DNA from: Mycolicibacterium smegmatis
GTDB taxonomy: Bacteria; Actinomycetota; Actinomycetes; Mycobacteriales; Mycobacteriaceae
Direction of reading: 5' to 3'
Length of the DNA: 32,000 nt
Assembly (NCBI RefSeq): GCF_001457595.1
Contig: NZ_LN831039.1
Location: forward strand, 6,060,001-6,092,000
Position numbers and translations under genes: made by a program. Below the pieces are notes generated by a model, which worked only from the letters and a program-made list of their open reading frames with translations, made no database searches and was not told where the DNA came from. Positions 17,115-18,539 of the stretch are shown piece by piece (position 1 is the first letter of the stretch; every line of letters begins with the position of its first letter).

Positions 17115-17145
17115 AGTATATGTCTTAACTCTGCCATGATGAAGC

Positions 17146-17151
17146 TATAGT
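17146..17151 (+). promoter_or_regulatory. Candidate -10 hexamer for a leaderless SatD-like transcript
   Basis: TATAGT lies in a 43-nt AT-rich gap, exactly 6 nt upstream of the ATG at 17158. No SD is present. Confidence 0.5.
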
Positions 17152-17157
17152 ATTCAC

Positions 17158-17796
17158 ATGGCAGAGCAAGGTTCACTGCGCGCCACCCTCATCGGGGACG
17201 TCGTCGGATCGCGTAGCGCGACCGACCGGCGCGCGCTGCACCGCGACCTCAACGCCGCACTCGCCGCCGTGGCCGGCCACGCGATCGACCCACCCGCCTT
17301 CACCGTCGGCGACGAATTCCAGGGCAGCTACCGCCGCGTCGGCGACGCGCTCACAGCAGCCTGGGCCATCCGCTTGGCGGTCGCCCCCGGGATCGACGTG
17401 CGGTTCGGCATCGGTTGGGGCGCGGTGAGCGTGCTCGACGAGGCCACGGGCATCCAGGACGGTCCGGGGTGGTGGGCTGCCAGGGAGGCGATCGAGTGGA
17501 CCGCCGAGGCACAACGCCAGCCCGGCCTGGCGCTGGTCCGCATCACCTACCGCAGATCCGCCGACACGGGCCCGGCCCCCGAGGCCGTCAACGCGGCCCT
17601 GATGTGTCGGGACCACATGTTTGGATCACTCGATGAACGGTCCATCCGCATCCTGAGGGGTCTCATGTCCAACCAGCCGAAGAAGGATCTCGCCGCCGCC
17701 GAGCAGATCAGCGCGTCGGCGGTGTCCCAGCGCGCCGGTCGCGACGGCCTGGACCTCATCGTGCTTGCGTCGCAGTATCTTTCGGAGATCACATGA
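17158..17796 (+). CDS. SatD-like protein: nucleotidyl-cyclase/GGDEF-palm-like N-domain + C-terminal HTH
   Basis: 212 aa. LIGDVVGSRS (residues 11-20) and FTVGDEFQGSY (residues 48-58) mimic the two metal-Asp strands of class III cyclases/GGDEF (F-x-D-I-V-G-F-T and T-I-G-D-x-x). The C-terminal KKDLAAAEQISASAVSQRAGRDGLDLI is HTH-like. The family name (SatD, PF16264) is from memory. Confidence 0.7.
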   Translation: MAEQGSLRATLIGDVVGSRSATDRRALHRDLNAALAAVAGHAIDPPAFTVGDEFQGSYRRVGDALTAAWAIRLAVAPGIDVRFGIGWGAVSVLDEATGIQDGPGWWAAREAIEWTAEAQRQPGLALVRITYRRSADTGPAPEAVNAALMCRDHMFGSLDERSIRILRGLMSNQPKKDLAAAEQISASAVSQRAGRDGLDLIVLASQYLSEIT

Positions 17797-18539
17797 GCAT
17801 GCTGGCGATGTTCCTCATCGCCATCGGTCTCGGTGACGTGATGCGGCGGTTCATCGGCACCCGATGGGTTCCGCCGGTGCTCGCGGTCGTGGTTCTCGTG
17901 GTGGGCTCGCTGCTCGCCGGACTGTGGCACCTCGGCGACCTGCCGTTGCTCGTCATCGCGTCGGTCGCGGTGGTCGGCTGGAACGTGGCGTGCGAGCGCA
18001 CCGAGGTCACCGGCACACGTCAGGGCATACCGCTGGTGATCATCGGCGGGGCGGTGACGGCCCTGATCTTGTTGTCGGGCTGGGCATCCGACGTCGGCGG
18101 CGCAGTGGGGCGCTGGGTGGCGTGGGCCGAGCTGCCCGAGAGCGTGTCGGCCGGGCGGGTGCTCATGGTGCTCGGCGTCATGCTCGTGCAGCTCACCACG
18201 GCCAACCACGTCGTGCGCCTGGTGCTCGGATCGGTCGGCGCGGTGAAGCCCGCGGGTCAGCCGCAGGCGTCCGATCGGCTCAAGGGTGGCCGGCTGCTCG
18301 GCCCGATGGAGCGCCTGCTGATCGTCGGGCTCGGCCTGGCGGGTCAGCTCACCATGGCCTCGGCCGTCGTCGCCGCCAAGAGCGTCATCCGCTTCCCCGA
18401 GATCAACGCGACGCGCAACCACGACGAGCAAGACACGGACCACGTCGGCATCGACGAGGTCGTCGAGTACTTCCTCGTCGGCTCGTTCGCCAGCTGGATC
18501 TTCGCGTTCGCGAGCCTGGCCCTCGTCGCCGCAGCGTGA
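17793..18539 (+). CDS. Polytopic membrane protein (about 6-7 TM), partner of the SatD-like gene
   Basis: 248 aa. Its ATG at 17793 overlaps the upstream stop (ATGA). Hydrophobic segments are spread over the whole length. A conserved-looking loop reads KGGRLLGPMERLLIVGLGL. I recognised no enzymatic motif. Confidence 0.7.
   Translation: MSMLAMFLIAIGLGDVMRRFIGTRWVPPVLAVVVLVVGSLLAGLWHLGDLPLLVIASVAVVGWNVACERTEVTGTRQGIPLVIIGGAVTALILLSGWASDVGGAVGRWVAWAELPESVSAGRVLMVLGVMLVQLTTANHVVRLVLGSVGAVKPAGQPQASDRLKGGRLLGPMERLLIVGLGLAGQLTMASAVVAAKSVIRFPEINATRNHDEQDTDHVGIDEVVEYFLVGSFASWIFAFASLALVAAA

Follow-up and report, generated by a model that had tools for sequence, protein, structure and literature searches.

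SatD and its membrane partner in Mycolicibacterium smegmatis: a candidate nucleotide-controlled autorepressor with a phased operator array

Between the genes ipdC and fadA6 of Mycolicibacterium smegmatis, amid genes of cholesterol catabolism, lie two overlapping genes encoding a protein of the SatD family and a polytopic membrane protein, and their position raises the question of what such a pair does and of whether it belongs with the genes that surround it. The window analysed here is a stretch of 32,000 nucleotides (RefSeq assembly GCF_001457595.1, contig NZ_LN831039.1, positions 6,060,001 to 6,092,000 of the forward strand) in which ipdA (14408-15295), ipdB and ipdC (16038-17114) are followed by satD, the partner gene, a CDF transporter gene, a fadA6-type thiolase gene and kstR2, a layout corresponding to MSMEG_6002-6009 (Kendall 2010, PMC3068626). 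A preliminary description of this DNA had regarded the pair as a module lying inside the KstR2 regulon, and acting either as a nucleotide-second-messenger sensor and effector or as a membrane-tethered regulator. The model best supported by our analysis is that of a sensor or enzyme domain joined to a helix-turn-helix (HTH) autoregulator, unusual in its fold and operator layout and accompanied by an uncharacterised membrane partner. In its more specific form, SatD would be a nucleotide-controlled autorepressor governing this partner, a reading to which we assign a probability of roughly 0.6. The two genes are:

17158-17796, plus strand: satD, 212 amino acids, orthologue of MSMEG_6005
17793-18539, plus strand: partner gene, 248 amino acids with seven transmembrane helices, orthologue of MSMEG_6006, coupled to satD through ATGA

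Both open reading frames stood as the preliminary description had placed them, in position, in length and in their overlap, the TGA of satD and the ATG of the partner gene sharing the ATGA at 17793-17796. The MSMEG_6005 sequence given in Table S5 of Martini 2019 differs from satD of the window by a few substitutions only. The region preceding satD had been called AT-rich, and the GC fraction indeed falls to 0.48 over 17050-17199 with about 0.7 on either side; an Rfam scan of 16800-19700 returned nothing beyond one sub-threshold chance match.

The strongest functional clue, missed in the preliminary description, is an array of operator-like sites in this upstream region, whose lineage-dependent half-sites point to autoregulation by SatD. 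Alignment of the regions upstream of mycobacterial satD, taken from the loci of 80 species-level genomes, uncovered a 17-bp palindrome, TGAAG-N7-CTTCA, present in two or three copies. The window holds three such sites, at 17084, 17112 and 17140 and 28 bp apart, for a chance expectation of 0.43 sites per 32 kb. Together with the start of satD they are arranged as follows:

17084-17100, unstranded: operator-like palindrome 0 (TAAAGCGTCATCCTTCA), within the ipdC 3' end and 28 bp upstream of palindrome 1
17112-17128, unstranded: operator-like palindrome 1 (TGAAGTATATGTCTTAA), overlapping the stop codon of ipdC as well as the -35 region
17140-17156, unstranded: operator-like palindrome 2 (TGAAGCTATAGTATTCA), enclosing the -10 hexamer TATAGT (17147-17152)
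17158-17160, plus strand: satD start codon and approximate transcription start, leaderless-type, from the published start site and conserved geometry

The equivalent of palindrome 1 is kept in mycobacterial loci, and the middle site, of the form T(G/T)AAGCTATA(G/A/C)TCTTCA and containing the -10 hexamer, is found in nearly all of them. The 81 mycobacterial promoters (that of the window and 80 others) contain 203 sites, and 119 of the 122 spacings between neighbouring sites are exactly 28 bp; as a background, 929 kb of flanking DNA yielded 18 one-mismatch sites (0.019 per kb) and not a single pair at 28 bp. The arrangement recurs in a diverse set of 80 metagenomic loci, whose SatD proteins are 35-51% identical to an Acidimicrobiia SatD, since palindromes of 5-7-5 architecture lie 28 bp apart in 34 of 78 of these loci and in only 1 of 1089 control windows. 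A geometry-free autocorrelation computed over the 150 bp upstream has its maximum at a lag of 28, with z=5.0 in the diverse set and 6.4 in mycobacteria and a harmonic at 56, and coding controls display codon periodicity only.

The main reason to assign this array to SatD is that its half-site covaries with the recognition helix of the C-terminal domain of the protein:

17623-17784, plus strand: SatD HTH of sigma-70 region 4/LuxR-like type, residues ~156-209, with recognition helix ISASAVSQR, from profile and Pfam matches

Helices of the form S(A/P)SAVSQR go with the half-sites TGAAG or TTAAG (100 loci), SQPAV(S/A)KR and SQPSV(A/S)NR with ATAAC, ATAGC or ATAGT, and NKSSVSRR and its relatives with CAACA, TTGCG or a GTTGC-N9-GCAAC variant, the 28-bp spacing being kept. 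Palindromic operators overlapping the promoter of their own gene, with half-sites that follow the helix, are the marks of an autoregulated HTH repressor, the binding itself being predicted here. The domain had already been noticed downstream of two aspartate motifs, and its type can now be given: by profile, the 55 C-terminal residues match region 4 of SigL (E=0.0017) and NarL/GerE-type HTHs, and Sigma70_r4 was matched in 57 of 103 members aligned from a set of 812 homologue representatives clustered at 50% identity. Pfam revealed no Sigma70_r2 match, and SatD is therefore not a sigma factor.

The leaderless-type promoter proposed in the preliminary description was borne out by comparison. In 79 of the 81 mycobacterial loci, window included, the in-frame ATG or GTG that opens onto the SatD core is preceded, at a distance of exactly 6 nt, by a TANNNT hexamer, and the sole transcription start site (TSS) listed for MSMEG_6005, at 6069890, lies 2 nt past the A of the annotated ATG (6069888; Martini 2019, Table S5). 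A scan for a sigma-70 consensus promoter had found nothing, and the mycobacterial -10-only leaderless promoter was recognised by comparison instead. As the TSS comes 2 nt into the open reading frame, the same table shifts the start of MSMEG_6005 downstream by 111 nt (37 codons), to a GTG, a change that concerns 17158-17270 of the window. Such a start would delete the first strand of the protein with D14, S18 and R24, and this re-annotation is thus very likely wrong.

Some further observations concern the edges of this region. In many mycobacteria (L001-L080) a third operator lies inside the coding sequence of satD, where it dictates an N-terminal peptide M-K-x-x-x-S, so that a DNA site constrains a protein sequence; the lineage of the window has lost this third operator, found elsewhere inside the first satD codons as ATGAAG-N7-CTTCA and giving MKxxxS. 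Some database SatD proteins carry N-terminal extensions of 25-45 amino acids (L085 5001-5070; P0390, P0382) that contain operator palindromes, for example TTAAGCTCCATTCTTAA at +18, and their called starts are probably too far upstream. A second symmetrical element of the window was considered as an operator and rejected, being lineage-specific and not conserved in other loci:

17129-17166, unstranded: perfect 10-bp inverted repeat (CTCTGCCATG / CATGGCAGAG), arms at 17129-17138 and 17157-17166, bracketing operator 2 with the -10 box and the start codon

The SatD family takes its name from satD of the sat operon of Streptococcus mutans. The window protein, which the preliminary description had tentatively placed in this family, matches the Pfam model PF16264 with E=7.6e-14 and 52.3 bits (cutoff 29), its residues 10-200 covering positions 3-199 of the 211 of the model; the assignment stands, all 103 of the 103 diverse homologues match the same model, and 'SatD family protein' is the NCBI name of close homologues. 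The first two thirds of the protein form a distinct domain:

17158-17562, plus strand: SatD N-terminal domain, class III nucleotidyl-cyclase/palm fold, residues 1-135, from profile, model, Foldseek and alignments

The AlphaFold2 model (pLDDT 97.3, pTM 0.93) gave 29 Foldseek hits in the PDB at E<=1e-3, which are class III adenylyl and guanylyl cyclases and one GGDEF domain (WspR). The best match is the cyclase homology domain (CHD) of Mycobacterium tuberculosis Rv1900c, 1ybt (E=1.4e-5, root-mean-square deviation 2.5 A over 118 columns), and the probability is 1.00 for 1ybt, 5d15, 1wc4 and 1cjk, in keeping with a palm of beta-alpha-alpha-beta-beta-alpha-beta topology. GGDEF domains, the cUMP synthase PycC and Cmr2 occupy lower ranks, from E~1e-3 down, with DosC, PycC and Cmr2 just beyond the top 29. 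Sequence alone, in a search with the SatD family profile, likewise leads to 1ybt (E=0.0029), and the resulting alignment sets D14 on the Asp of the FTD and D52 on the Asp of the AGD of Rv1900c, and RFGIGWG on its RIGIHAG strand. The motifs LIGDVVGSR (residues 11-19) and TVGDEFQG (residues 49-56) had been read as the two metal-binding strands of a cyclase or GGDEF palm; the D14/D52 numbering is correct, the fold is found, and both aspartates are invariant, together with G88, G102, A108 and R109, in two independent diverse alignments (A2 and A5; 41-46 homologues), in which S18, G51, E53, Q55, R82, G84, W105 and W106 show little or no variation. Pfam gave no Guanylate_cyc match for the window SatD at E<=1, nor was this family among the 25 most frequent of the 103 homologues, and SatD gave no GGDEF, GGDEF_2 or PucR-HTH match, its motif reading T-V-G-D-E-F with the first Gly of GG(D/E)EF replaced. 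A phmmer search of the PDB with the single SatD sequence returned noise only. SatD may already be placed by Pfam in its nucleotide-cyclase clan.

The second protein conforms to its earlier portrayal as a 248-residue polytopic membrane protein devoid of recognisable enzymatic motif. Hydropathy and an AlphaFold2 model (pLDDT 85, from a shallower alignment than the diverse alignment A3) agree on seven transmembrane helices. The loop at residues 146-167 is basic (Lys and Arg 4, Asp and Glu 1) and probably cytoplasmic, and the acidic loop at 196-222 probably lies outside. Partners come in two sizes, a three-helix form of 113-139 amino acids and a seven-helix form of 220-286, which share a conserved core of three transmembrane helices (residues ~120-248 in the window protein) with the motifs NxxVR, GRxxGxxER, AAKxxxRFPE and EYxLxGSxxSW. 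Eleven residues are invariant: G166, G170, E173, R174, A195, K196, R200, E203, E225, G230 and S234. The partner is without match in Pfam and NCBIfam (noise only), and neither it nor SatD has any match in PADLOC or PHROGs. In Firmicutes, neighbours of SatE type belong to the family DUF3307; its proposed identity with the partner, or that of any other Pfam family, was dropped after searches with 12 members, ten diverse ones at E<=5 and two more at E<=1, gave no match. The model has no fold relative in the PDB by Foldseek (best E=1.0, TM-score 0.15), and when proteins were searched with the partner profile, all that came back were 'hypothetical proteins' of mycobacteria, with no link to a family. 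All homologues bearing a source name are labelled 'hypothetical' or 'membrane protein', with a single exception, which JGI calls 'CAAX protease family'.

The association of the two genes, described at first from the window, holds far beyond mycobacteria and is near-obligate. With the fold and the two Asp, this conserved pairing is the third point at which a computation could have refuted the preliminary description, and all three turned out in its favour. The partner gene lies immediately 3' of satD in 79 of the 80 mycobacterial loci, and in 69 of the 80 diverse loci a match to its hidden Markov model (HMM) follows satD directly on the same strand; four more have the N-terminus of the partner cut by a contig end, which brings the total to about 73 of 76 assessable loci. 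Of 68 diverse loci, 55 show the 4-nt overlap. Two or three diverse loci with enough DNA are without an intact partner, one being a truncated copy. At 90% identity there are ~3,000 SatD and ~2,400 partner clusters, and more than 590 matches come from species-representative genomes; the pair is also found on a conjugative plasmid of Arthrobacter. Among the exceptions, the partner reading frame of L109 is truncated after 16 codons (~1850-1900), L106 and L113 are without a same-strand partner, and an Acidobacteria locus (L084, 1002-1238) retains of its partner no more than a C-terminal fragment (EYFLLGSLTSW), whose frame overlaps the end of satD; all of these look like decay or frameshifts.

In most of the 80 mycobacterial loci the pair is located between ipdC and fadA6-kstR2. 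Its neighbours outside mycobacteria (141 flanking proteins) are of the housekeeping type, among them glnE (9-11), class I tRNA synthetases (6) and Usp (5), and these flanks show no defence enrichment, only generic kinase or helicase matches in 2-3. The insertion site of satD is clade-specific and always follows a large housekeeping gene: glnE lies directly upstream in the same orientation in one diverse group (L107, L124, L126, L136, L153, L160 and others), and a class I tRNA synthetase gene lies directly upstream in an Acidimicrobiia-like group. On plasmid pZXY21 of Arthrobacter sp. ZXY-2, the pair is adjoined by a divergent gene for a SMODS / DncV-like nucleotidyltransferase (L081 3207-4373, minus strand), the sole defence-type neighbour seen. 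The pair is best explained as an autonomous, vertically inherited operon of two genes.

We propose that SatD would operate as a one-component-type transcription factor. Its cyclase-fold domain keeps residues that would hold an Mg-bound nucleoside triphosphate, namely the two Asp, a Gly-Ser phosphate loop and a helix Arg, and its HTH would bind the 17-bp palindromes, probably as a dimer. Autorepression is expected since the two to three palindromes, 28 bp apart, cover the -35 region, the -10 box and the leaderless transcript start: bound SatD would occlude RNA polymerase, and satD and the translationally coupled partner gene would be repressed together. The occupancy of the DNA would be set by the state of the cyclase-fold domain in binding or converting a nucleotide, the membrane partner being the regulated output or, possibly, the signal input on the membrane side.

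Several points weigh against this autorepressor model. The binding of SatD to the array, the repression, the nucleotide as ligand or substrate and the part played by the partner are inferred, the fold, the residue conservation, the coupled pairing and the array with its covariation being shown by computation. The 28-bp period is not a whole number of helical turns, and the model does not account for the geometry of occupancy. Under the strict 5-7-5/28-bp rule the array is missing from 44 of 168 loci, some of which show a 5-9-5 variant or offer too short an upstream sequence. The mapped TSS is at the G of the ATG and, taken literally, would exclude the start codon from the transcript. As for the catalytic site, the near-invariant W105 stands four residues before R109, where class III cyclases carry their transition-state Asn, and the substrate-specifying pair (Lys/Asp, or Glu/Cys in some cyclases) is not conserved, the position four before D52 being variable; both equivalences are drawn from motif spacing, the HMM alignment ending at residue 101, before that helix. 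A Trp at the Asn position and the lack of a conserved base-specifying pair suggest that the cyclase chemistry of SatD may be lost or altered.

In an unlikely elaboration of the model, SatD would be an active non-canonical nucleotidyl cyclase or transferase, its substrate or product switching the binding to the array and the partner serving as receptor or effector of the signal. If true, these two genes would constitute a chromosomal, vertically inherited and self-contained circuit of nucleotide signalling, uniting an enzyme, a transcription factor and a membrane output; it would be widespread in Actinomycetota and would differ in mechanism from cAMP/CRP, c-di-GMP and Pycsar/CBASS.

Three other explanations overlap with the autorepressor model and differ from it mainly in the role given to the partner. 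It is possible, if doubtful, that the genes form an addiction or toxin-antitoxin-like pair, in which the partner would be harmful if over-made, SatD would repress or neutralise it, and the loss of SatD alone would be deleterious. Some support comes from a meta-analysis of transposon sequencing, in which a Streptococcus pyogenes gene annotated satD scores as essential in three emm types and is absent from 29% of genomes (PMC11323703), a pattern typical of antitoxins and of repressors of toxic genes, this putative counterpart being identified by its annotation name. The tight coupling and an operator overlapping the promoter would suit such a pair, as would the few loci with SatD and no intact partner (L106 and L113, with L109 truncated), the reverse case lying outside the sample; stable vertical inheritance and housekeeping contexts would not, and the many invariant polar residues of the partner suggest a specific activity over simple membrane damage.

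Quite unlikely, in our opinion, is a synthase and effector of Pycsar/CBASS-like type, in which a nucleotide signal made by SatD would gate or activate the partner and the HTH would be secondary. The invariance of both metal Asp and of the helix Arg, with a phosphate-loop Ser invariant or nearly so, the Foldseek matches to the cUMP synthase PycC (7r65), to the GGDEF domain of WspR and to Cmr2, the invariant Gly/Arg-rich cytoplasmic loop of the partner (KGGRxxGxxER) and the SMODS/CD-NTase gene beside one plasmid copy are all compatible with it. Nevertheless, PADLOC is null for both proteins, no SatD relative was found in viral contigs (0 of 30 pattern-matched stretches), and the flanks of the pair are of the housekeeping type; its synteny is fixed across 80 mycobacterial species, unlike that of patchy defence islands. 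Pfam and Foldseek detected no known nucleotide-binding domain in the partner, and the operator array would be left unexplained.

A slender chance is also given to a membrane-tethered regulator analogous to a sigma/anti-sigma pair, one of the two roles initially put forward, where the partner would hold SatD at the membrane and release it on a signal. The resemblance of the C-terminal domain to region 4 of SigL, the conserved co-translation with a membrane protein and a conserved cytoplasmic loop available for docking are in line with this explanation; SatD has however no sigma region 2, and the short class of partners has only ~20 cytoplasmic residues.

The last alternative concerns the surroundings of the pair, in which the following features were located:

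13610-13623, 21387-21400 and 24310-24323, unstranded: perfect KstR2 boxes (AnCAAGnnCTTGnT), placed where divergent promoters of the cholesterol ring C/D cluster are expected
18547-19524, minus strand: CDF transporter gene
20754-21395, minus strand: kstR2

The scan of the window for KstR2 boxes further gave a one-mismatch site at 1440 and none upstream of satD. In a kstR2 mutant, the fold change is 2.3 for MSMEG_6005, 1.1 for MSMEG_6006 and -1.1 for MSMEG_6007, none of these changes being significant, and all three genes are missing from M. tuberculosis and R. jostii (Kendall 2010, PMC3068626). The preliminary placement of the pair inside the KstR2 regulon is thus right as to position and wrong as to regulation: according to published data, satD and its partner are not regulated with the surrounding KstR2 cholesterol genes. 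The CDF gene, which had been counted as a companion of the module, has a homologue in 0 of the 80 related loci, where the space before fadA6 is empty in 26 and otherwise occupied by unrelated genes, such as one resembling a Zn-dependent alcohol dehydrogenase; we therefore discarded it as part of the module and regard it as a lineage-specific insertion. That the pair is an accessory part of cholesterol/HIP catabolism under KstR2, as its conserved mycobacterial location might suggest, is very improbable, being contradicted by the box scan and the mutant data and by the presence of the pair beside glnE or tRNA synthetase genes in other lineages.

The locus itself is not new, since public genomes carry annotations of its genes and Pfam has an entry for the family. 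In the searchable literature we found no description of the cyclase fold of SatD, of the partner family, of their obligate coupling or of the operator array, and no paper on mechanism; what is new here is the 28-bp phased operator array tracking the recognition helix. Two 'hypothetical proteins' are thereby turned into a testable model with a defined DNA target, two Asp and a recognition helix in SatD, and, in the partner, eleven invariant residues. An active cyclase-fold domain would represent a new branch of mycobacterial nucleotide signalling; with a domain that is a sensor only, the pair would still represent a one-component design that is new, the phased operator array with its period of 28 bp being unusual. 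The annotation is corrected on two points, namely the membership of the KstR2 regulon and a start of MSMEG_6005 that deletes an invariant Asp.

Within PF16264, the window protein matches the model over its full length, the actinobacterial branch reaching only 52 bits, and its membrane partner stands outside DUF3307 and every Pfam family. With the class III cyclases (Rv1900c CHD, Ma1120, CyaC), SatD shares the palm fold and both metal Asp in equivalent strands, and it keeps the G-S of the phosphate loop, the RxGIxxG strand and the helix Arg; it differs from them by a shorter domain (~135 amino acids) fused to an HTH and without a Pfam Guanylate_cyc match and, as judged from motif spacing, by a Trp for the expected transition-state Asn and no conserved base-specifying pair. 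The Pycsar system (PycC and PycTM) likewise places a cyclase-fold protein beside a multi-transmembrane protein, and PycC 7r65 is among the Foldseek matches; SatD, in contrast, has an HTH and an operator array, and neither a PADLOC match, a defence island nor a cyclic nucleotide-binding domain in the partner. Compared with ECF sigma/anti-sigma pairs, SatD has a region-4-like HTH only, its N-terminus being a cyclase fold. Its TVGDEF resembles the GG(D/E)EF hairpin of GGDEF cyclases, a likeness at the level of the fold only (WspR and DosC, 3i5c and 4zvg, at E~1e-3 by Foldseek). Regulators of the PucR/CdaR type, which join a palm-like, degenerate GGDEF-like sensor to an HTH (3onq, E=1.1e-3 but TM-score 0.28), show that such a design is an established one; domain order and HTH type are different in SatD which, unlike degenerate GGDEF-like sensors, retains both catalytic Asp.

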